DNA from: Candidatus Cohnella colombiensis
GTDB taxonomy: Bacteria; Bacillota; Bacilli; Paenibacillales; Paenibacillaceae
Length of the DNA: 64,000 nucleotides
Reading direction: 5' to 3'
Assembly (NCBI GenBank): GCA_029203125.1
Contig: CP119317.1
Coordinates: 1,704,261-1,768,260 of the forward strand
The notes under the pieces are model-generated. The model made no database searches, had not been told where the DNA came from, and worked only from the letters and a program-made list of their open reading frames with translations. A program made the position numbers and the translations under genes. Shown here piece after piece: positions 3,733-57,046 of this stretch. Position 1 is the first letter of the stretch. Each line of letters begins with the position of its first letter.

Positions 3733-3954
3733 ATGATGTACTTTTTAATGATCGTCGGTATTGTCGTCATTATTTACGCAGCCATACTCTCCGTCGTCAT
3801 GGTGCAAAAGCGACAAAATAAAGTAATCGATCAGGGTGTAAGCGAACAAACGGTGAAGAACCCGATTATAGGGAATCCCATTACGTATCTATATATCGGT
3901 ATTCCAATCTTAGCTGTTATCGGCGGCTTGATTTGGTGGTATTACAAACCTTAA
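3733..3954 (+). CDS. small two-TM membrane protein, hypothetical
   Basis: 73-aa ORF with two hydrophobic helices. Sits 17 nt upstream of the next ORF on the same strand. Confidence 0.45.
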   Translation: MMYFLMIVGIVVIIYAAILSVVMVQKRQNKVIDQGVSEQTVKNPIIGNPITYLYIGIPILAVIGGLIWWYYKP

Positions 3955-3970
3955 AGGGGAGAGATCGCGA

Positions 3971-4279
3971 ATGGACAAGCGCAAATATTATGTATCGATA
4001 CAATCCAAAACAATTATGGCAAATCGGGAGGATGCAGCCTATGAGCTGGAGATTGAAGCAACAGACGAGCAGCTCGATCAGCTGCACCAATATTTCGAAT
4101 TCATGGCAGCTTATGATGATAAGTCTCATTTTCGAACGATGATTCCAGGTATTCCTTATCACGAAGATAATGAGAATGATAAATTTGATAGTTATCTCCA
4201 TAAAGCCTATCGATTGATCCATGAAACCGGCACTGATCAAACGAAAAGCTTTATTGAATCTAACCATATTTTACGTTAA
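3971..4279 (+). CDS. hypothetical acidic protein
   Basis: 102-aa ORF preceded by an AAAGGGGAGAG RBS. No motif recognised. Confidence 0.5.
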   Translation: MDKRKYYVSIQSKTIMANREDAAYELEIEATDEQLDQLHQYFEFMAAYDDKSHFRTMIPGIPYHEDNENDKFDSYLHKAYRLIHETGTDQTKSFIESNHILR

Positions 4280-4902
4280 CGGATAACCCTTTTTGTTCGC
4301 AAATAAGCGTACAAGCTCATTAAAGCAAAGCCACTAATTGCTCCGCCAACATGCGCAGATATGCTAATATTCGGGACAATAACTGAGTAGATCAACCCAA
4401 AGATGAGCGTAATATAGATCGTCTTTCGCGTACTTTCATCGATTGCAAATCTACGGAAGATAGCCAAGTATAGGTAAGCACCGAATAAGCCGTAGATTGC
4501 ACCTGATGCTCCGACAGAAGGGTAAACCTCACCTGAATACACAATTACACTAAAGACGTTCGCGAATACTCCCGAAACGAGGTAAAACAGAAGGTAGCGA
4601 GCGTGACCGAACAATCTTTCGAGAGGAGGGGCGAATATGACAATTGCAAAAGTATTGAACAACAAGTGGTCAAAGCTTCCATGTAACGTAATTGAGGTCA
4701 CATAACGCCATGGCTCATCTAGTCCATAGTCGTTATAAAACGATTGTGCATAAAACAAACCCCAATAAGTGATTTGCTTATCTAGAAATAAAAAATCTAC
4801 TGCAAACAGTACAATATTCAGGGCTATGATGCACGACGTAATCGGATAATATTTGAGATAGCCTTTGAACGTTTCATTACGTAAAAACAACATGAAATTC
4901 AC
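4276..4902 (-). CDS. rhomboid-family intramembrane serine protease
   Basis: Multi-TM protein with GASGAIYG (GxSG catalytic Ser) and a downstream SAHVGG (catalytic His). Confidence 0.85.
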   Translation of the reverse strand: MNFMLFLRNETFKGYLKYYPITSCIIALNIVLFAVDFLFLDKQITYWGLFYAQSFYNDYGLDEPWRYVTSITLHGSFDHLLFNTFAIVIFAPPLERLFGHARYLLFYLVSGVFANVFSVIVYSGEVYPSVGASGAIYGLFGAYLYLAIFRRFAIDESTRKTIYITLIFGLIYSVIVPNISISAHVGGAISGFALMSLYAYLRTKRVIR

Positions 4903-47420: not shown

Positions 47421-47843
47421 TTATTTACCTTCTTGAACGAACTTCTCTATACGTTCTTTGATGGCATCACGAACCGCGCGGAATTGTTCCATAATTTCTT
47501 CTTCAGTACCTGTTGCTTTAGCAGGATCGTCGAATCCCCAGTGCCATTTAATGACGTTAGGGTTAGAGATCACTGGACAGTGCTCATCGGCGTGCCCACA
47601 CAACGTGATCACGTATGTTGCCCGATTCAGGATCTCCGGATCGATGACGTTCGATGTGTTATTAGAGATATCTACACCGGCTTCGGACATGACTTTAACC
47701 GCGCGAGGATTCAACCCATGGGCTTCTAATCCAGCGCTTTGCACTTCATAGAGGTGACCGCCTATCTCATTCATAAATCCATCCGCCATCTGACTCCGAC
47801 AAGAATTGCCTGTACATAAGAAATACACGAGTTTTTTATCCAC
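47421..47843 (-). CDS. arsC: arsenate reductase, thioredoxin-coupled LMW-PTP type
   Basis: CTGNSCRS P-loop and a downstream Cys pair ([10 protein letters not shown]); 140 aa. Last gene of the ars operon. Confidence 0.92.
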
Positions 47844-47873
47844 GATTGAAAGTCTCCTTTAAATTTAGCGTAA

Positions 47874-49166
47874 CTAGCCGATGAATTTTAACCAGAAGTA
47901 GAGGCCCGTGAGCGTAAGGAACAGCACAGGAATAGTTAGAACAATTCCTATTTTGAAGTAGTAACCCCAAGTGATTTTGACACCCTTAGAAGATAACACA
48001 TGAAGCCAGAGCAATGTGGCTAATGATCCAATCGGTGTGAGCTTTGGTCCCAAATCAGATCCAATGACATTGGCATAAATAAATGCTTCTCGGACTATGC
48101 CGGTTGCATCTGTTCCTTGAATGGCCAGCGCATCAATCATAACTGTAGGCATATTGTTCATGATAGAAGAGAGGATAGCTGCAATAAAACCAGAACCAAC
48201 CGTAGCAACGAAGAGTCCTTGATCTCCTACCCATTCGAACACTTTACCGAGTTGATCGGTAAGCCCGACATTGCGTAAGCCGTAAACGACAACATACATA
48301 CCGATAGAAAATACAACAACTGCCCAAGGTGCTCCTTTTACAAGCTTCCAAGTGTGAATTTCCTTGCTTTGTCTAGCGAGAAAAAGAAATGCAATCGCTA
48401 CAACACCCGCAATAATGGACACTGGAACATTGGTAATTTCGCTTGAAAGGTAAGCAATCAGAAGTACCGCTAAGATGACCCAAGAAATCCGAAATAGTCG
48501 AACATCTTTAATGGCTTCACTTGGCTTTTTCAACTGAGTCAGGTCATAGTTCTTTGGAATACTTTTACGGAACATGAGATATAAGACCAATAAGCTTGAA
48601 GCAATAGCAAAGAGTGTAGGCACAATCATCCGACTGGCGTATTCCACAAATCCGATATCGAAAAAGTCGGAGGATACAATGTTAACTAGATTACTCACCA
48701 CGAGTGGAAGGGAAGCCGTATCTGAAATGAATCCACTCGCCATGATGAATGGCAAAATCATTCTTTGGTCAAACTTTAAAGCTCTTACCATGGCGAGGAC
48801 AATGGGGGTTAAAATCAATGCTGCTCCGTCATTGGCGAAGAAAGCCACTACAGCTGCTCCAAGTAAAATGACATAAACAAACATCAAATTTCCGTTACCT
48901 CTCGCAAATCGGGCCATATGAAGAGCTGCCCATTCAAAGAATCCTATCTCATCTAGAATAAGAGATATTAATATGATGGCAACAAAGGCCAACGTAGCGT
49001 TCCAAACAATCTGAGTGACATCCCAAACATCGTCAAAGTTAACGACCCCGACAAGGAGAGCAAGGATTGCGCCACCGCATGCTGACCAACCAATGTTAAG
49101 TCCTTTAGGCTGCCAGATAACAAATACGAGAGTTACTAAAAAAATGAGTGAAGCGATCGTTAACAT
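47874..49166 (-). CDS. arsB: arsenite/antimonite efflux pump ArsB
   Basis: 430 aa, 12 TM helices. Colinear with E. coli ArsB as I remember it ([45 protein letters not shown]). Confidence 0.92.
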
Positions 49167-49179
49167 AAATCCTCCAGGT

Positions 49180-49494
49180 TCAGTCGCAGCTTTGTGAGCT
49201 TAATGCGTTTATTCTATCTTTCATTGAAGGGAGATGCGCAAGGATTTCATTTAAATAGGGCTTGTCATCAAAATTCAATGAATAATAAACCCACTGCCGA
49301 CGCTTGGTTTCGTTAATAAGGCCACCCGTTTTAAGTTTCTTTAAGTGCTGACTGACGTTAGGCTGTGTAGTATCCAAGATCTGGACAATGTCACAAACAC
49401 ACATTTCTTGTTCTTTAAGTAGGGCAAGGATGGTCAATCTACTCTTGTCGGAGAGGAGTTTAAGGGATTCCAGCATTTCGTCGACATTGGTCAT
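49180..49494 (-). CDS. arsR: arsenic-responsive repressor ArsR
   Basis: wHTH with an EMCVCDI As(III)-binding motif. First gene of arsRBC. Confidence 0.9.
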
Positions 49495-50604: not shown

Positions 50605-51048
50605 ATGAAAGGAATAATCGGAGCCATACTTATTTATGTTACCTATATTTTCGCAGGATTAATTATGGATACATATCCATTTAAGAATTATCAAGATATG
50701 AGTACTGACGGATCATTAAATTATTTTTTCATTATTAATTCCATTCTATTTGGGCTTCTATATTTATCTGCAAAAATAATCAATAAATATAAAGGGGTTT
50801 CTGGAATCCTTATGTTTATTGCATGGTATCTATTATCTACTGTATACGGTATTTTACATATGAAAAAAGAGTTTGACTTATACCATTCAGATGATTGGAG
50901 GGGTTTTTTTGGTTGGGAATTTGCATTGTGGGAAGTGAAAGTGCCAGTTTATATAGGTGTCGCGCAATTAATTTTTATAGTTGGTCATTTCATAATTAAA
51001 ATTTTCTTGGAATCATGGAATTCTAGAAACAAGTCTAGCAACAGATAG
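50605..51048 (+). CDS. hypothetical four-TM membrane protein
   Basis: 147-aa ORF, very AT-rich. AGGAGAAG RBS. Confidence 0.5.
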   Translation: MKGIIGAILIYVTYIFAGLIMDTYPFKNYQDMSTDGSLNYFFIINSILFGLLYLSAKIINKYKGVSGILMFIAWYLLSTVYGILHMKKEFDLYHSDDWRGFFGWEFALWEVKVPVYIGVAQLIFIVGHFIIKIFLESWNSRNKSSNR

Positions 51049-51051
51049 AAA

Positions 51052-51378
51052 TTAACTTCTAGGTGCCCAAAGCATGATTGAAACACCGACAACGCAAACA
51101 GCGGCACCAATCCAGTCGTATAGATCAGGAGTTCTTTTATCGACCAGCCATCCCCATAAAACGGCCAGAACTACGAATACACCGCCATATGCAGCATAGA
51201 CCCTACCGAAAGAGGGGAAGCTCTGCCAAGTTGGGATAATTCCATACAGGATCAGAGTAGCACCACCTACAATTCCATACCAGAAGGGCTTTGATTCTCT
51301 CAGCCAAAGCCAAACTAGATAACCCCCACCAATTTCAGCTATTCCTGCGATTATGAAAATTATAATCGATAATAACAA
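51052..51378 (-). CDS. ynfA: YnfA family (UPF0060) small membrane protein
   Basis: 108 aa, four TM helices. Shares GRVYAAYGGV and LYDW.GA with E. coli YnfA. TTG start lies 8 nt after AAGGAG. Confidence 0.88.
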   Translation of the reverse strand: MLLSIIIFIIAGIAEIGGGYLVWLWLRESKPFWYGIVGGATLILYGIIPTWQSFPSFGRVYAAYGGVFVVLAVLWGWLVDKRTPDLYDWIGAAVCVVGVSIMLWAPRS

Positions 51379-51394
51379 TTGTATTTCTCCTTTT

Positions 51395-51790
51395 CTAAGT
51401 ACAAGTACCCGTATTCTTTATTTTTGTCGCGCATTCTGACCAAGTAAGACACTTACAGCTTAAGCCATCATCTAGTATTTGAATCATAGAATTGATCTGC
51501 TTTTTTCTCTCCTCAAGCTCAGTGCGTTTATTTCGGGCCATTTGTTCCCAATTCACTGATGTAGGCATCGTTTCGAATCCTTCGAGAAGTACCAAGATTT
51601 CTTGTATCGTAAAGCCAGTTTGCTGTGCAATCTTAATGAAATTGATTCGTTCTACCTGGCTTTCGGCATAACGACGTTGACCTTTTTTTCTCTCAGGAGA
51701 GGGAAGTAATCCTGCAGTTTCGTAAAATCGAATCGCGGATGCATTAATTCCAACTAGAGCTGCTAGTTGCCCAATACTAAGACTTGTCAA
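51395..51790 (-). CDS. MerR-family regulator, SoxR-like (partial Fe-S Cys motif)
   Basis: HTH ..IGQLAALVGINASAIRFYETAGLLPSPERKKGQRRY..FIKIAQQTGF.. resembles SoxR. The C-terminus has C-K-C-LTWSE-C (CxCx5C) plus one distal Cys. TTG start follows GAGGTG. Confidence 0.75.
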   Translation of the reverse strand: MTSLSIGQLAALVGINASAIRFYETAGLLPSPERKKGQRRYAESQVERINFIKIAQQTGFTIQEILVLLEGFETMPTSVNWEQMARNKRTELEERKKQINSMIQILDDGLSCKCLTWSECATKIKNTGTCT

Positions 51791-51805
51791 AGTTAATCAC
51801 CTCTG

Positions 51806-51836
51806 TTGACTTAAAGTTAACTTGAAGTATTATAAT
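51806..51836 (+). promoter_or_regulatory. MerR-type promoter with a 19-bp spacer containing a soxbox-like palindrome
   Basis: TTGACT (51806-51811), a 19-bp spacer, then TATAAT (51831-51836). The palindrome CTTAAAGTT|AACTTGAAG (51810-51827) has one mismatch. Confidence 0.8.
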
Positions 51837-51860
51837 CAAAATTATACGAGGGAGGAGGTA

Positions 51861-52109
51861 ATGAAGCAAATGAAAAGAGGAATTGCTGTTCTTGGAATTC
51901 TAGGAGCGTGTGCGCTCTGTTGTGCTATACCCTTGATTGGAGGGGCAGCCGTATTAGGTATTTCTTCTTTCTTTTTGAATCCGTTGGTCATCGCAATATT
52001 GGTTCTTTCCTTTATTATTGCAGGAATCGTAATTTATAAGCCACGTAAAGTAACTGGTTCTTCTTGCATGAAATCAGGATGCAACTGTAACTCCTGCTCG
52101 AAAGGGTAA
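51861..52109 (+). CDS. 82-aa two-TM cysteine-rich membrane protein (MerF/MerT-like CC-xx-P motif)
   Basis: MKQMKRGIAVLGILGACALCCAIPLIGG.. with a tail SSCMKSGCNCNSCSKG. A GGGAGGAGG RBS (51849-51857) favours ATG 51861 over the ORF-track start at 51822. Confidence 0.6.
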   Translation: MKQMKRGIAVLGILGACALCCAIPLIGGAAVLGISSFFLNPLVIAILVLSFIIAGIVIYKPRKVTGSSCMKSGCNCNSCSKG

Positions 52110-52124
52110 CTGATTGTTATACAC

Positions 52125-52880
52125 ATGATGTCAAAAATCGCACCTATAAACGACTACTTTTTGATAACTGCTCATGAACATTTTTCTCGGCTTCATCGGC
52201 TATTTAATTCACAGAATGAAAAGGGGAAAGAAAGGGTTGGGTTGGCACTATTGAAGAAAATATGGCTTTTCACGGTCTATGCGATTGCTGCATGGTTATT
52301 GATTATAAATCGGAAACCCCTTATCGGTTGGATGGAGTCAGAATCGTATTGGCAACAGAATATTCTAATCGTGCTGATCGGCCTGATTATTGCCATTGTT
52401 CCGGCTATACCCTATGGCCTGATGGCAGCTGTATTGGGGGCTAAATTCGGGCCGGTAACCGGAACAATTCTGAATGTTTTCATCTCAGCCGGGGCAGCTA
52501 TGATTCTATTTTTGCTCATTCGTCATACTTTTTCAGCAGAAGGAAGGGCACGGGCGGCCAAGATGAAAGGAATTCGTTATTTGACGGATTACACAGAACG
52601 AAATGCTTTTTTTTCTATCTTTTTTGCTCGAACAATTCCAATTGTGCCTGCCCAAGCGGTCAACATCTTTGCCGCAGTAACCCAGATTTCATGGGTTCCG
52701 TATTTACTCGCAACCGTTCTGGGCAAAATCCCATTTATCGTCATGGTGACATTGTTGGGAGATCGCTTTTTTCAGAATGCGGATCTTGGACAAATGATGA
52801 TAATAACAGGACCCTATGGAATTTTCATTATGCTTGTATTTGCTGGATATCGATTTTTTCAAAAATACCAATCGCGTTGA
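52125..52880 (+). CDS. TVP38/TMEM64 (VTT domain, DedA-related) membrane protein
   Basis: Multi-TM protein with the ..FFARTIPIVPAQAVNIFAAVT.. VTT-domain pattern. The start is uncertain, since the N-terminal 40 aa are hydrophilic. Confidence 0.7.
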   Translation: MMSKIAPINDYFLITAHEHFSRLHRLFNSQNEKGKERVGLALLKKIWLFTVYAIAAWLLIINRKPLIGWMESESYWQQNILIVLIGLIIAIVPAIPYGLMAAVLGAKFGPVTGTILNVFISAGAAMILFLLIRHTFSAEGRARAAKMKGIRYLTDYTERNAFFSIFFARTIPIVPAQAVNIFAAVTQISWVPYLLATVLGKIPFIVMVTLLGDRFFQNADLGQMMIITGPYGIFIMLVFAGYRFFQKYQSR

Positions 52881-53001: not shown

Positions 53002-53538
53002 ATGAAGAAGAAAACCTGGTTAACCATCATAATGATCGTTGCATTGATTGCGTCGGGTTTAATTATTATAAACTTCGATAAAACTAAACCGAACTATGCC
53101 AACATTAAACAAATCGTTAATGATTATAGTACTGGTAAAATAACAAATGAGTCTGCGTCTATCACATCTCAACAACTCATTGTTACCAAGAATAATGGTA
53201 AGAAAACAACGTTTGAATTACCTGAGAATGAGTTTTTTGTTTCTATCGCGCCGTATATTGAAACAACGCATCCATGCGCGATTCACAGCTTAACGGGTTG
53301 TCGAGGTGAATTGATAGATAATGAGTTTGATATACAGATTAAGGATGACAACGGGCAAGTAATCAAGAATGAGAAAATTAAATCTCAATCAAATGGATTT
53401 ATTGATTTGTGGTTGCCACGCGATCAAACATATCACATCACAATTAAATATGATGGGAAAAAAGTTGAATCTCAGATTTCAACATTCAAGGAAGATAATA
53501 CTTGTATTACGACGATGCAGTTGGAAGAAACTATTTGA
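53002..53538 (+). CDS. CueP-family metal-binding protein (membrane-anchored or secreted)
   Basis: Signal-anchor, then FFVSIAPYIETTHPCAIHSLTGCRGEL.....GFIDLWLPR....DNTCITTMQL. This matches the three-Cys pattern I recall for CueP. Confidence 0.65.
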   Translation: MKKKTWLTIIMIVALIASGLIIINFDKTKPNYANIKQIVNDYSTGKITNESASITSQQLIVTKNNGKKTTFELPENEFFVSIAPYIETTHPCAIHSLTGCRGELIDNEFDIQIKDDNGQVIKNEKIKSQSNGFIDLWLPRDQTYHITIKYDGKKVESQISTFKEDNTCITTMQLEETI

Positions 53539-53992: not shown

Positions 53993-54340
53993 ATGATTCC
54001 AGAACAACCAGTAATAACGCAAGCCTCATCGCCAGTTGACTTCTCAAAATTTGAAGTGAAGTTTAAAGCTCTCTCTGACCAAAAACGACTTCAAATCATG
54101 TACTTACTTACACAACGAGGGAACACATGCGTATGCGATCTTTCCGAACTTATTGAAATGCCGCAATCAAAGCTTTCGTACCATTTAAAAATTTTACTCG
54201 ATGCAGAGCTCATCAAACGCGAAATTAGAGGCACATGGAGTTATTACGAACTGAATCAATTCGAAGTAAATAATCTGCTATCTCCTGAGCTTTGTTGCAT
54301 TTTTCGTAAAGATTCATATTCTTCAGGCGATTGCTGCTGA
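53993..54340 (+). CDS. ArsR/SmtB-family metalloregulator with CVCD and two C-terminal CC pairs
   Basis: ..GNTCVCDLSELIEMPQSKLSYHLKIL.. wHTH. The tail reads ..PELCCIFRKDSYSSGDCC-stop. GGAGGGAG RBS. Confidence 0.85.
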   Translation: MIPEQPVITQASSPVDFSKFEVKFKALSDQKRLQIMYLLTQRGNTCVCDLSELIEMPQSKLSYHLKILLDAELIKREIRGTWSYYELNQFEVNNLLSPELCCIFRKDSYSSGDCC

Positions 54341-54365
54341 AATGCAGCCTTCGTTAGTTTAATAA

Positions 54366-54381
54366 ATCAAAATATTTTGAT
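54366..54381 (+). promoter_or_regulatory. perfect 16-bp palindrome, third copy of the ATCAA-N6-TTGAT operator
   Basis: ATCAAAATATTTTGAT lies between the ArsR stop and the flavoprotein RBS. Confidence 0.6.
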
Positions 54382-54398
54382 ATATGGAGGATACAGTT

Positions 54399-55805
54399 AT
54401 GAGTGAATGTTGTAAGTCTTCGGTAAATATGCAAACTACCATACAGAACGCGTGCGGATGCGAAGTTCAGGTTTCATCTCCGTTAGATGAGAACAGAAGG
54501 TTACCTGTCGCCATTATCGGTGGTGGTCCAGTAGGACTAGCTGCTGCTGCCCACCTGGTAGCTAAGGGAGAATCATTTGTGCTCTTCGAGGCGGCAAGTC
54601 AAGTGGCGGGGAATATCCAACAATGGAGTCACGTTCGTCTCTTTTCTCCATGGCAGTATAACATTGATAAGGTAGCTAAGAAACTGCTTGAGATACATGG
54701 CTGGAAAGCACCCAAAGATACGGATCTCCCAACGGGGGATGAACTGGTGAAACAGTATCTTGATCCACTTTCTAAATTACCTCAAATTAAACCTTATGTG
54801 CACTATGACGCCAGGGTAGTCGACGTAGGACGTAAAGTTATAAACAAACTGAAAACAGCAGGTCGCGATAAGATGCCATTCGTATTGTATGTTGATAAGG
54901 CTGGTAAGCGACTCTCTTTCGAAGCAAAAGCCGTAATAGATGCTTCTGGAACTTGGTCCAGCCCAAATCCGGCCAATTCCGATGGGATTTGGACAGAAGA
55001 TGAACTTGCATTGAACAACAAAATCACTTATAGCATACCTGATGTTTTGGGAAATCAAAGAGAGCGATACGCCAATAAGAAAGTTCTTGTCGTCGGGAGT
55101 GGTCACTCCGCCATCAATGCCTTGCTTGATCTTGAACGTCTACAAGAGCAGGAACCGTCAACGAGCATATTTTGGATAATCCGGAAACCTCAAGTAGAAG
55201 ATGTATACGGCGGCAAAGAGAATGATAGTCTTCAGGAACGCGGGGCGCTTGGCATACGTCTTCAAAGGCTCGTGGAATCGGGTAAAGTAGAAGTACAGAC
55301 CTCTTTCAACATTCAGAGCTTCAAGAATAGTGGGGGACGGATCACAGTTATCGGCAGCAAGAATGGGGAAACTCTTCAAATCGAAGGCGTAGATGAAATA
55401 ATCAGTAATACAGGATCAAGACCAGATCTGAGTTTTCTAAGAGAAATCAGGATGGACATTGACCCAGCCTTAGAAAGTGTGAACGAACTCGGCCCACTTA
55501 TCGACCCCAATATCCACAGCTGTGGAACCGTACGGCCGCATGGAGAAAAGGAGTTGCGGCAGCCTGAAGCCAACTTTTATATCGTCGGATCTAAAAGCTA
55601 CGGCCGAGCGCCGACGTTCCTAATGGCTACGGGATACGAGCAAGTGCGTTCAATCGTTGCAGCGTTAACAGGTGACTGGGAAGCAGCAACGAATATCGAA
55701 TTGGATTTGCCGGAAACTGGAGTCTGCAGTGTCGATTTGCAAGATTGTTGCACAAGCGGAACACCTAACAATAACGTTGCCACGAAATCACAATGCTGCG
55801 GTTAG
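54399..55805 (+). CDS. NAD(P)/FAD-dependent two-dinucleotide-fold oxidoreductase (FMO/CzcO-like) with Cys-rich N- and C-terminal tails
   Basis: IIGGGPVG and VVGSGHSA Rossmann motifs, plus DASGTW and NTGSRPD. The N-terminus reads MSECCKSS..NACGCE and the C-terminus reads ..GVCSVDLQDCCTSG..KSQCCG-stop. A GGAGGA RBS lies 7 nt before ATG 54399. Confidence 0.75.
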   Translation: MSECCKSSVNMQTTIQNACGCEVQVSSPLDENRRLPVAIIGGGPVGLAAAAHLVAKGESFVLFEAASQVAGNIQQWSHVRLFSPWQYNIDKVAKKLLEIHGWKAPKDTDLPTGDELVKQYLDPLSKLPQIKPYVHYDARVVDVGRKVINKLKTAGRDKMPFVLYVDKAGKRLSFEAKAVIDASGTWSSPNPANSDGIWTEDELALNNKITYSIPDVLGNQRERYANKKVLVVGSGHSAINALLDLERLQEQEPSTSIFWIIRKPQVEDVYGGKENDSLQERGALGIRLQRLVESGKVEVQTSFNIQSFKNSGGRITVIGSKNGETLQIEGVDEIISNTGSRPDLSFLREIRMDIDPALESVNELGPLIDPNIHSCGTVRPHGEKELRQPEANFYIVGSKSYGRAPTFLMATGYEQVRSIVAALTGDWEAATNIELDLPETGVCSVDLQDCCTSGTPNNNVATKSQCCG

Positions 55806-57046
55806 GCCCACATCGTAATAGACAGAATGACAGCCGTCTTAAGCCAGTAATACTGATGGCACTAATAACGGCTGTCTCTTTATTTGGGGATTCTATGTTG
55901 TACATTGTATTGCCGATACATTGGAAAGAAGTCGGGTTGGTATCACTGGTTGAGGTAGGCATCCTTTTGTCTGCTAATCGATTCATCAGATTACCGCTGA
56001 ATCCCTTAATTTCAAAGTTGTACACCATTATGAATGTCCGTAAAGGCTTAACCCTTGCTATCCTAATTGCTGGGTCTACAACATTTTTATATGGATATGC
56101 TAAAGGCTTTACCTTTTGGCTAATCCTACGTTGTGTTTGGGGTTTGGCTTGGTCAATTATTCGACTGGGTTCTAATTATTTGATTCTTGATTTATCAGAT
56201 AATAATAATAATCGGGGATATTTGATGGGGACTTACAATGGGCTCTCAAAAATCGGCACCCTAGTCGGGATGTTTGCTGGTGGAATATTCGTTGAATGGT
56301 ATGGTATTAAGGTCGTAGCTTCTGTTTTTGGAATTGCAACATTTATGATATTACCTGTTATTGCACTTATTCCACGATCTAATAATCAAGCTGCAATTGT
56401 GCGGACTTCACTATTTACCTTACCTTTATTAAAGTTGCCAAAACTTCCAATGATGCTGTTAACCGTATTTCTCGTCATGTTTTATTTAGATAGTATGGTA
56501 ACGGCAACATTAAGCCATTTGATTGATATTCGACACCCCAACACTATTCTTTTTGGCATTGCAATAGGTGCAACTACTGTTGCCGGAATTCTTCAAGCGT
56601 TTCGTATATTATGTTCAACTTTCTTATCTCCTTGGATCGGGAAAAAATCGGATGGAAGAGGACAGAGAATAATTTACTTAATATTGGCTCTATTTCTTTC
56701 ATCTACATTCTTATCCATCGTACAATTTGATCTTCCCATATATATTTGGCTTACTTTTTTGCTTGCACTTTTACTTACATCTTCTGTTCTCATAGTTATT
56801 ATGGATGCATATATTACGGACGTCATTGAAGGTAAGATGAGAACAGCCGCCGTGACGACATTTGTAATTGTATCTGATATCGGAGTAGCTTTCGGTCCAG
56901 TGTTGGGTTTTATATCTGAACGATCATATGGGATTTCAACCACCTACACAATCTCAACAACAGTTTTACTTCTATTATCTATTTTATGGGGAATTGAATG
57001 GCTGAGAATGAGATCTAAATCGTTAGCATATTCGAAATCGATATAA
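55793..57046 (+). CDS. MFS transporter
   Basis: About 12 TM helices. ATG 55793 overlaps the flavoprotein stop by 13 nt. An alternative start is ATG 55856. Markedly AT-rich. Confidence 0.75.
   Translation: MLRLGPHRNRQNDSRLKPVILMALITAVSLFGDSMLYIVLPIHWKEVGLVSLVEVGILLSANRFIRLPLNPLISKLYTIMNVRKGLTLAILIAGSTTFLYGYAKGFTFWLILRCVWGLAWSIIRLGSNYLILDLSDNNNNRGYLMGTYNGLSKIGTLVGMFAGGIFVEWYGIKVVASVFGIATFMILPVIALIPRSNNQAAIVRTSLFTLPLLKLPKLPMMLLTVFLVMFYLDSMVTATLSHLIDIRHPNTILFGIAIGATTVAGILQAFRILCSTFLSPWIGKKSDGRGQRIIYLILALFLSSTFLSIVQFDLPIYIWLTFLLALLLTSSVLIVIMDAYITDVIEGKMRTAAVTTFVIVSDIGVAFGPVLGFISERSYGISTTYTISTTVLLLLSILWGIEWLRMRSKSLAYSKSI

Follow-up and report, generated by a model that had tools for sequence, protein, structure and literature searches.

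A MerR-type regulator with three conserved loop cysteines and a divergent MerF-like membrane protein in Candidatus Cohnella colombiensis: a candidate switch for thiophilic metals or metalloids

Genes and promoters at the locus

The 64,000-nucleotide stretch of DNA analysed in this study (hereafter the window) derives from Candidatus Cohnella colombiensis (contig CP119317.1, positions 1,704,261 to 1,768,260 of the forward strand). At positions 51052-52880 it contains a gene for a MerR-family regulator, here designated REG, which is located divergently from a gene for a small cysteine-rich membrane protein, here designated SMALL (Table 1). The present analysis revealed that the regulator, the promoter between the two genes and SMALL constitute a widely conserved unit, which is far from a chance arrangement and no local oddity. 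The regulator has the MerR fold and three invariant thiols, the promoter carries a conserved dyad within a 19-bp spacer, and the partner proteins are rich in cysteines. As is argued below from sequence comparisons, this unit may respond to thiophilic metals or metalloids. The sequence features that had been listed in a first-pass annotation of the locus, made from the DNA alone, were all recovered at the same coordinates.

The stop codon of REG is separated from the start of ynfA by 16 nt. The latter gene encodes a full-length member of the YnfA/UPF0060 family, as judged by scores of 150.6 bits against PF02694 (cut-off 24.9) and 141.7 bits against NF002586 (cut-off 114). No terminator-like site was found in the short gap between the two genes, and co-transcription of ynfA with REG, which the first-pass annotation had proposed, is indeed probable.

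Table 1. Features of the REG-SMALL locus and its neighbourhood. Coordinates refer to the window. RBS, ribosome-binding site; TM, transmembrane; SMR, small multidrug resistance; MFS, major facilitator superfamily; LMWP, low-molecular-weight phosphatase; ORF, open reading frame.
Feature	Coordinates	Strand	Remarks
REG (MerR-family regulator)	51395-51790	-	131 aa; TTG start behind GAGGTG
Operator, inverted repeat ACTTAAAG-TTAA-CTTGAAGT in promoter spacer	51809-51828		Based on sequence and orthologous promoters
SMALL promoter	51806-51836	+	-35 TTGACT 51806-51811; 19-nt spacer 51812-51830; -10 TATAAT 51831-51836
SMALL	51861-52109	+	82 aa, two predicted TM helices; RBS GGAGGAGG upstream
ynfA (UPF0060)	51052-51378	-	Small 4-TM SMR-like membrane protein; PF02694 and NF002586
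Putative REG-ynfA promoter, back-to-back	51841-51869	-	-35 TTGCTT 51864-51869; 17-bp spacer; -10 TATAAT 51841-51846
VTT/TVP38-TMEM64-type membrane protein	52125-52880	+	PF09335; start used by NCBI at ~52242, giving 212 aa
CueP-family metal-binding protein	53002-53538	+	NF038094, 192 bits; signal-anchor-like N-terminus
ArsR-type regulator, 473-aa flavoprotein, MFS transporter	53993-57046	+	Flavoprotein Cys-rich at its ends, weakly ArsO-like
147-aa multi-TM ORF, convergent with ynfA	50605-51048	+	No family match
arsR-arsB-arsC operon, complete	47421-49494	-	ArsR with CVCD motif; ArsB 682 bits against PF02040; ArsC of LMWP type

Sensor loop and family placement of the regulator

REG carries the sequence elements ASAIRFYETAGLL, GQRRY and FIKIAQ, ends in LDDGLSCKCLTWSECATKIKNTGTCT, and matches the Pfam models MerR_1 (PF13411), MerR (PF00376) and MerR-DNA-bind (PF09278). 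The AlphaFold2 (AF2) model of the protein (pLDDT 79.8) shows the MerR fold, with a winged helix-turn-helix domain and a dimerisation helix that spans residues 78-111. When this model was used in Foldseek searches, NmlR, SoxR, CadR, MerR and CueR were all returned with a probability of 1.0 and with similar scores; SoxR was among the top structural matches and showed the highest identity among them. Since the whole MerR family scores similarly, these searches do not discriminate between SoxR, MerR and CadR. Among the NCBIfam models, SoxR (TIGR01950) was the best match of REG, with a score of 91.3 bits that lies below the cut-off of 116.9. The scores against MerR (77.3 bits, cut-off 150.9), ZntR (56, cut-off 143), CadR (53, cut-off 151) and the CueR/GolS type (60, cut-off 147) were lower. 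Judged by these scores, SoxR is the closest named family of this MerR-type regulator.

The C-terminal loop of REG reads G109-x2-C112-x-C114-x5-C120 and is followed by a further cysteine, C130. The tail LDDGLSCKCLTWSEC aligns without gaps to LDGCIGCGCLSRSDC of Escherichia coli SoxR, with Gly109 placed on SoxR C119, and C112, C114 and C120 placed on SoxR C122, C124 and C130, respectively. The motif that binds the [2Fe-2S] cluster in SoxR is C-x2-C-x-C-x5-C (PMC11672702, PMC6300522), and REG lacks the first of these four cysteines. When 1.84 billion cluster representatives (50% identity) were searched exhaustively with HMMER, this proved to be the rule among its relatives: 134 of the 150 nearest representatives have the pattern x-xx-CxCx5C, and none has the four-cysteine motif of SoxR or a cysteine at the first position. 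Across this three-Cys family the first position is occupied by G, A, L, V or S, and no conserved fourth ligand that could take the place of SoxR C119 was found among the family members. Indeed, in 60 distant members only R39, K88, C112, C114 and C120 are invariant. These distant members score 67-86 bits against the SoxR model, all of them under the cut-off.

The 120 nearest clusters form a Paenibacillaceae clade in which CxCx5C is kept by 117, Gly at position -3 by 116, W117 by all, and the extra cysteine nine residues further on by 108. This last residue, C130 in REG, is absent from 9 of 117 close relatives and from nearly all distant ones. Three metagenomic sequences among the 120 close relatives (P0055, P0056 and P0102) have one sensor cysteine replaced (C114S or C120F), which could be due to decay or sequencing error. 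Ser78 of REG, which is near-invariant in the clade, is located where divalent-metal MerRs have a cysteine and where CueR has S77. REG thereby lacks the partner-subunit cysteine at the N-terminus of the dimerisation helix that marks the divalent heavy-metal MerRs, and it remains below the cut-offs of their models.

In a rough neighbour-joining (NJ) tree, which contained a single SoxR and had no support values, E. coli SoxR was the sister of the whole three-Cys group, and MerR, ZntR and CueR were placed outside. The pairwise scores of the group were nearly equal for SoxR (median 58.6 bits) and Tn501 MerR (53 bits). Because of these close pairwise scores, the one SoxR in the tree and the lack of support values, we grade a sister relationship with SoxR as likely. 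Thus, REG belongs to a large and old three-Cys group that is likely the sister of SoxR. The first-pass annotation had viewed REG as a SoxR-derived sensor with a degenerate Fe-S motif, and had suggested a phylogeny as a check. This view holds as far as the closest named family, the homologous loop and the soxbox-like operator are concerned, and SoxR is indeed nearest in the tree. The terms 'degenerate' and 'SoxR-derived' were nevertheless too strong, given the sub-threshold score, the prevalence of three cysteines among the nearest representatives, none of which has four, and the position of the group beside SoxR rather than within it in the rough tree.

The divergent promoter and its operator

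The operator of the SMALL promoter contains the dyad CTTAAAGTTAACTTGAAG (51810-51827), which occurs only once in the window when at most one mismatch is allowed, with only 0.39 occurrences expected at up to three mismatches. A second dyad-like match at 47845-47864 has three mismatches and was rejected, being at chance level. The first-pass annotation had compared the dyad with a soxbox consensus. This consensus was correct, since the E. coli soxS promoter in NC_000913.3 reads TTTACC-TCAAGTTAACTTGAGGAAT-TATACT. The dyad in the window agrees with the E. coli soxbox core at 15 of 18 positions, and the whole 31-bp promoter agrees with the soxS promoter at 25 of 31, the register being identical in both comparisons. 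A palindrome inside a -35/-10 spacer of 19-20 bp, as is typical of MerR-family operators, is therefore present, and it resembles the soxbox-type dyad in the 19-bp-spacer promoters that SoxR targets.

The same promoter is conserved at the same position in 46 of 50 related loci, which, together with the window, gave 47 sequences for comparison. TTGACT is present in all 47, and so is a TAnnnT hexamer exactly 19 bp away (TATGAT in 26, TATACT in 10, TATAAT in 6, TATGCT in 4 and TACACT in 1). The dyad takes the general form ACTTAAAG-N4-CTTTAAGT, with nearly invariant arms and four central bases that vary freely in 13 variants. Among the orthologues, the soxbox-like character noted earlier is kept in the arms of the dyad, but not in its centre: AAGTTAACTT, which had been stressed in the first-pass annotation, is only half conserved. 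We also considered the central GTTAAC as a conserved recognition core and ruled it out because it varies among the orthologous promoters.

On the strand of the regulator, a TATAAT or TATACT hexamer is conserved approximately 4-5 bp beyond the other -10 hexamer in the orthologous loci. We infer from this arrangement a back-to-back REG-ynfA promoter, similar to the PR/PT pair of mer operons, the transcript of which would cross the operator. Since this promoter would read through the operator, REG probably regulates its own expression.

The small cysteine-rich membrane protein

The first helix of SMALL contains C17/C20-C21-x2-P24 (ALCCAIPL) and the tail contains C69-x4-C74-x-C76-x2-C79. In the 65 clusters of the SMALL family, the arrangement in helix 1 is C-x2-CC-xx-P; CCxxP is kept in all 65 and the full tail in 56. 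SMALL (LCCAIP) therefore shares with MerF, MerT and MerE the vicinal cysteines that precede xxP in TM helix 1. No Pfam model matched SMALL at E ≤ 0.1, the MerF, MerT and MerE models not being reached, and the sole NCBIfam match was MerTP with an E-value of 0.055 and 13 bits, far from the cut-off of 180 bits of this curated model. A profile of the SMALL family was more informative. Its top match in the PDB was MerF (2m67), aligned over the full length, with the CC pair placed on the Ser-Ser of the construct used for nuclear magnetic resonance (NMR). Against MerF with the cysteines restored, and with a MerF tail that was partly entered by hand, the profile scored 27 bits, compared to a maximum of 13 bits in 2000 shuffles; the scores of 16-20 bits against MerE also exceeded this maximum. 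In a database of 5.8 billion sequences, the profile reached actinobacterial and betaproteobacterial proteins of 85-90 aa with E-values of 1e-5 to 5e-3. Some of the distant relatives of SMALL, actinobacterial ones among them, are named 'mercuric ion transport protein'.

The AF2 model of SMALL, which is of low confidence (pLDDT 60), contains helices at residues 6-34 and 41-58. Since positively charged residues precede helix 1 and follow helix 2, both termini are predicted to be cytoplasmic. SMALL is not a component of mer operons: merA was found nearby in only 3 of 50 loci, in each case as part of another operon, which is convergent with the module and encodes a MerR of its own. Altogether, SMALL is a real and conserved MerF-like, cysteine-rich membrane protein, with a predicted relation to the Mer carriers that is visible only at the level of profiles.

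Conservation of the module and its setting in the window

The conservation of the locus was assessed in a scan that was limited to one genome per species and returned 50 loci, nearly all of them from Paenibacillus or Cohnella, with one from Bacillus and one from a Chloroflexia metagenome-assembled genome (MAG). SMALL is adjacent to and divergent from REG in 37 of the 50 loci, the forms in the Bacillus and Chloroflexia loci being diverged. Regulator, dyad-bearing promoter and SMALL are found together in approximately 40 species of Paenibacillaceae, and also in the Bacillus and Chloroflexia genomes. This survey of distribution and co-occurrence, which the first-pass annotation had called for, confirms the proposed coupling of the regulator to an uncharacterised cysteine-rich membrane protein with a MerF-like CC-xx-P. 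In approximately 25 of the 50 loci, ynfA lies behind the regulator. The closest relative of the window locus (L057; regulator 82% identical) holds just the regulator and SMALL genes, and we therefore consider the regulator, SMALL and the operator to be the core of the module.

The Chloroflexia MAG (L048) encodes a 41%-identical three-Cys regulator and contains two operator promoters of the Paenibacillus type (3951-3980 and 4603-4633). One of these precedes a gene for the soluble partner CCPF described below, and the other precedes a gene for a 131-aa relative of SMALL that has C-x3-C in place of the CC pair. On plasmid NZ_CP048287.1 of Paenibacillus rhizovicinus (L138, 3677-4771), ynfA-regulator and SMALL-CCPF-DoxX form tight operons beside an IS110 transposase gene, and both cysteine-rich proteins carry the RefSeq label 'hypothetical'. 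This location of the full module on a plasmid, next to a transposase gene, points to a module that is mobile as a whole.

The VTT gene next to SMALL is a different case. Its VTT domain scores above the Pfam cut-off (PF09335, 66.5 bits, cut-off 33.9), and NCBI names the product 'VTT domain-containing protein'. The 132-nt gap between SMALL and the start assigned by NCBI contains no terminator and no structure (z = +1.0), so that VTT may be expressed by read-through from SMALL in the source genome. We ruled VTT out as a conserved regulon member, because it was found beside SMALL neither in L057 nor in any one of the 50 loci. The window copy is thus an ordinary, slightly reduced member of the module, which lacks CCPF and has the VTT gene instead. 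Just downstream of VTT lies the CueP gene (53002-53538). The arsR-arsB-arsC operon is located 1.9 kb from ynfA, which places the window module in a metal(loid) island. A scan of the 64-kb window with Rfam gave no match.

Partner genes in other genomes

All ORFs of the 50 loci were clustered in a census of neighbouring genes. The usual next gene in the divergent operon, found in 34 of the 50 loci and absent from the window, encodes a soluble protein of approximately 116 aa, which we call CCPF. Its invariant residues are C9, E64, C67 and C68, with exactly three invariant cysteines and the motif ER-x-CCPF. CCPF is annotated as hypothetical and has no relative in Pfam, NCBIfam or the PDB sequences; examples are found at L026 3529-3879, L048 3511-3864, L052 4169-4570, L138 6258-6611 and in approximately 50 further loci. 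Across phyla, CCPF is the commonest divergent partner of the three-Cys MerR regulators. The last gene of the operon belongs to the DoxX family (DoxX_2) in 8 loci as well as on the plasmid, and genes for Rrf2 and a TrxR-like protein follow CCPF in 3 loci.

Several additions to the operons relate to arsenic. In 7 loci the place of ynfA behind the regulator is taken by an Acr3-like SBF gene, which is also located downstream of CCPF in L027 and L029; its products are named 'arsenic resistance protein' by NCBI and 'ACR3 family arsenite transporter' by JGI. Two species, Cohnella lupini and C. yongneupensis, have arsB and then arsC directly behind the operator promoter, with junctions that differ between the two; in the former, arsI/cadI and a gene for a phosphatase come next. 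In L013, arsR-arsB-arsC are located after CCPF. In the flanks of the 50 loci, mer operons that include a MerR gene of their own are present in 3 loci and cadC-cadA in 5, and additional ars genes also occur there.

Two observations on the surroundings may be added. A pair of genes for an ArsR-type regulator and a flavoprotein, as present in the window at 53993-57046, is also a neighbour of the three-Cys regulator in L014, L021 and L027. Downstream of the regulator of C. lupini (L041, 4434-5909) lie an 80-aa ORF ending in ATACCAVCC, an ArsR-type gene and a gene for a 271-aa protein with a CC-rich N-terminus, which by eye only has the look of an ArsM-type methyltransferase.

In Actinobacteria (Catellatospora and metagenomes), genes for a CCPF-like protein, a MerR-family regulator, a SMALL homologue and UPF0060/YnfA are arranged in the same direction (L051 4615-5623; L052 and L053 4169-5620). 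This regulator, with the tail GC-x6-C-x5-CC, is matched best by the MerR (96 bits) and ZntR models, and upstream of the cassette a mer-like dyad of the GTAC type (CCTGTACC-TGG-GTACAGG) is located in a 19-bp spacer. Two different lineages of MerR proteins thus drive the same set of effectors, which argues that the set answers a toxicant signal of the MerR type.

A further scan of 80 metagenomic loci was seeded with distant three-Cys regulators (a subset of 6 sequences). CCPF was again the commonest divergent neighbour (17 loci), followed by thioredoxin (7) and YnfA (4). In L058 (51-2647) and L064 (1318-3914), the three-Cys regulator is divergent from genes for CCPF, thioredoxin and a 454-aa glutathione-reductase-like flavoprotein. 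Neighbours of this kind make a thiol-stress signal as plausible as a metal for the broad family.

The signal sensed by the regulator

The reading that we favour, and to which we would grant slightly less than an even chance, is that REG senses thiophilic metals or metalloids through a site of three thiolates (S3), with As(III)/Sb(III) ahead of Hg, Cd and Pb. A REG dimer would bind the dyad ACTTAAAG-N4-CTTTAAGT in the over-long 19-bp spacer. The sensor would be the C-terminal loop, homologous to the cluster loop of SoxR, with the conserved thiols C112, C114 and C120, usually accompanied by C130. Capture of As(III) or Sb(III), the leading candidates, or of Hg(II), Cd(II) or Pb(II) by this S3 site would cause the liganded dimer to untwist the spacer, so that the -35 and -10 hexamers are aligned and SMALL is transcribed. 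Activation by remodelling of the spacer is taken here from the established mechanism of the MerR family (PMC11672702). SMALL would then offer the CC pair of helix 1 and its cytoplasmic CxCxxC tail to the same type of ligand, the VTT gene of the source genome may be expressed along with it, and YnfA would act as the efflux partner. The fuller system of other species would add CCPF and DoxX, or an arsenite carrier.

A divalent site of the MerR type and a cluster of the SoxR type are both made less likely by the serine at the position of CueR S77 and by the lack of a conserved fourth ligand. The loci of the module, including the window, lie in ars/cad/mer islands, and the comparative context speaks more for a soft metal(loid) than for redox sensing by an Fe-S cluster. 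The cysteine-rich partners SMALL and CCPF, and the control of the actinobacterial cassette by a regulator close to MerR and ZntR, point in the same direction. The strongest pointers towards a metalloid are the Acr3-like carrier in the place of YnfA and the capture of arsB by the operator promoter in two species.

Several findings weigh against this reading. The best model for the SBF proteins is acr3, the score of 50 bits being far below the cut-off of 283. Operons that include arsenic genes account for only 3 + 9 of the 50 loci. The arsB genes of the window and of L013 have their own ArsR, and in L041 a putative ArsR-ArsM unit is located just downstream. None of the metagenomic loci contains ars, mer or SMALL genes near the distant three-Cys regulators, so the arsenic link is limited to the Paenibacillaceae clade, where it partly reflects the neighbourhood of the island. 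It is also not obvious why a MerF-like importer should be present without MerA. In addition, GAAGTATTATAAT (51806-51833, plus strand) allows a second reading of the -10 region, found in the window only, as TTGACT-16-TATTAT; the 16-bp spacing might permit a basal expression that is independent of an activator. Our searches of the literature gave no characterised three-Cys member, and a 2024 review of metallostasis lists no arsenic-sensing MerR, the signals named for the family being Hg, Cd, Pb, Co, Zn, Fe, Ni, Au, Cu, redox, carbonyl and drug (PMC11672702). Lastly, the thioredoxin genes (7 loci) and the glutathione-reductase-like flavoprotein beside the distant relatives would fit thiol stress at least equally well.

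This last point leads to the foremost alternative, which we regard as unlikely, though a serious contender. The thiols of CxCx5C could be oxidised to a disulfide, alkylated or persulfidated upon disulfide stress or exposure to electrophiles or reactive sulfur species, and the reshaped loop would activate the promoter, with SMALL, CCPF and DoxX serving to buffer or repair thiol damage. Such a thiol switch would account for the distant regulators located divergently from CCPF, thioredoxin and a class-I disulfide reductase (L058 and L064), for the DoxX genes at the ends of operons and for the Rrf2 and TrxR-like genes after CCPF. Moreover, thiol sensors are known in the MerR family, NmlR being an example given in a review. 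However, the additions to the operons of the Paenibacillaceae are arsenite carriers, ArsC and ArsI rather than thioredoxin systems, the actinobacterial cassette is run by a MerR of the heavy-metal type, and a disulfide needs one cysteine fewer than the three that are invariant.

Less probable still, in our opinion, is a sensor of redox cyclers in which the loop retains a [2Fe-2S] cluster on three cysteines. The fourth ligand would be C130, E119/D107, a low-molecular-weight thiol or a residue contributed by the partner subunit. The gap-free alignment with SoxR, which includes L-D..C-x-C-L...[DE]-C, the soxS-like operator and register, and the highest identity to SoxR among the top structural matches all speak for such a cluster, as do the ranking of SoxR as top NCBIfam model for most family members (67-91 bits) and the presence of C130 in 108 of 120 close relatives. 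YnfA, as an SMR-like pump, also belongs to a class of targets known from non-enteric SoxR regulons. Yet each of the four cysteines of SoxR is reported to be needed for the cluster, as judged by mutagenesis, the family-wide replacement of C119 by G, A, L, V or S has no conserved substitute, and C130 is missing from some close and nearly all distant relatives. In addition, every member remains under the SoxR cut-off, and the regulon lacks the oxidoreductase, monooxygenase and MFS or resistance-nodulation-division (RND) targets that are typical of SoxR.

The remaining alternative, a mercury accessory module in which REG binds Hg(II) in a trigonal S3 site like MerR and SMALL is a MerF-type carrier that feeds a MerA encoded elsewhere or sequestration by CCPF, is very improbable, because, despite the CC-xx-P helix and cytoplasmic cysteine cluster of SMALL, its match to MerF, the mercuric names of some of its relatives, the three cysteines that equal the coordination number of Hg-MerR and the direct proximity of merE-merT-merP-merA operons in L001, L011 and L015, these operons are convergent with the module and have their own MerR, merA is absent from the flanks in 47 of 50 loci and from the window, SMALL reaches no Pfam model for MerF, MerT or MerE, and the partner-subunit cysteine of Hg-MerR is a serine in REG.

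A thiophilic metal or metalloid as the ligand of the three thiols therefore remains our preferred reading. A more far-reaching version of it, which we consider doubtful, is that REG would be the first As(III)/Sb(III)-sensing member of the MerR family, with a three-thiolate site built on the Fe-S loop of SoxR, and that SMALL, CCPF and YnfA would make up a new metalloid cassette common to Bacillota, Actinobacteria and Chloroflexota.

Novelty and significance

The literature on SoxR and MerR variants, UPF0060/ynfA, MerR proteins associated with ars genes, and Rv2639c yielded no description of this group of regulators, of CCPF or of a link between YnfA and MerR. The three-Cys group is likewise not listed in a comparative study of MerR regulons from 2006 or in the 2024 review of metallostasis. 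MerR activators that act on promoters with a long spacer are thus a known kind of system, but neither this form of the sensor nor this combination of effectors is known.

Sensors of the MerR family serve as textbook examples of allosteric promoter remodelling and provide parts for metal biosensors. The three-Cys group is large, comprising 134 of the 150 nearest representatives, and no studied member of it was found in the literature. The identity of the ligand would show how one and the same loop switches between an Fe-S cluster and a thiolate site. The system may also provide an activator-type part for biosensors of As/Sb or other soft metals, for which so far only repressors of the ArsR type are known. 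Furthermore, it could assign a function to three orphan families, namely the MerF-like 80-aa protein, CCPF and YnfA/UPF0060; for the last of these, a metalloid cassette, if confirmed, would represent the first physiological role.

Comparison with known systems

SoxR (E. coli b4063; TIGR01950) shares the MerR fold with REG and provides its best-scoring named model. The C-terminal loops are equal in length, and REG keeps the counterparts of C122, C124 and C130 as well as the acidic residue before the last cysteine. The likeness extends to the soxS promoter: an 18-bp dyad with an AAG-N4-CTT core lies at the same register within the 19-bp spacer of both promoters, and 25 of 31 promoter positions are identical. 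In contrast to SoxR, REG has a glycine at the position of C119, scores under the cut-off and belongs to a separate three-Cys group, the central TTAA of its operator not being conserved. Its type of regulator is found in Bacillota and Chloroflexota, and the targets are cysteine-rich membrane and soluble proteins, YnfA and arsenite carriers rather than soxS or redox enzymes.

With MerR and the mer operons (Tn501, Bacillus RC607/MB1), the system shares divergent back-to-back promoters, an operator in a 19-bp spacer, a three-thiol sensor and, as the first regulated gene, one for a small membrane protein whose helix 1 contains CC-xx-P. However, REG has all three sensor cysteines in a single C-terminal loop and lacks one where the dimerisation helix begins, the operator is not of the GTAC type, merA, merP and merB are absent from the unit, and REG scores only 77 bits against the MerR cut-off of 151. 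SMALL itself resembles MerF and MerE in its size of approximately 80 aa, its two TM helices, the CC pair with xxP in helix 1, and the basic stretch followed by a cysteine cluster after helix 2. It differs from them in having C-x4-C-x-C-xx-C instead of a CC pair in the tail and an extra cysteine three residues before the CC pair, and in being located outside mer operons with the three-Cys regulator, CCPF and YnfA as constant partners.

CueR and GolS are like REG in having a serine at the S77 position and ligands from the loop only. REG has three cysteines in CxCx5C where these regulators have two in Cx7C, lacks an adjacent copA or copZ, and scores 60 bits against a cut-off of 147. As(III) sensors of the ArsR type, in which the metalloid is bound by CxCxxC in R773 or by CCx5C in the protein of A. 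ferrooxidans, are functional analogues only. Both types of protein would offer a three-thiolate site from a short cysteine-rich stretch, and the control of arsB/arsC is common to both in some species (L041 and L042). Their folds are, however, unrelated, and whereas ArsR acts by derepression, the three-Cys system would act by remodelling its promoter.

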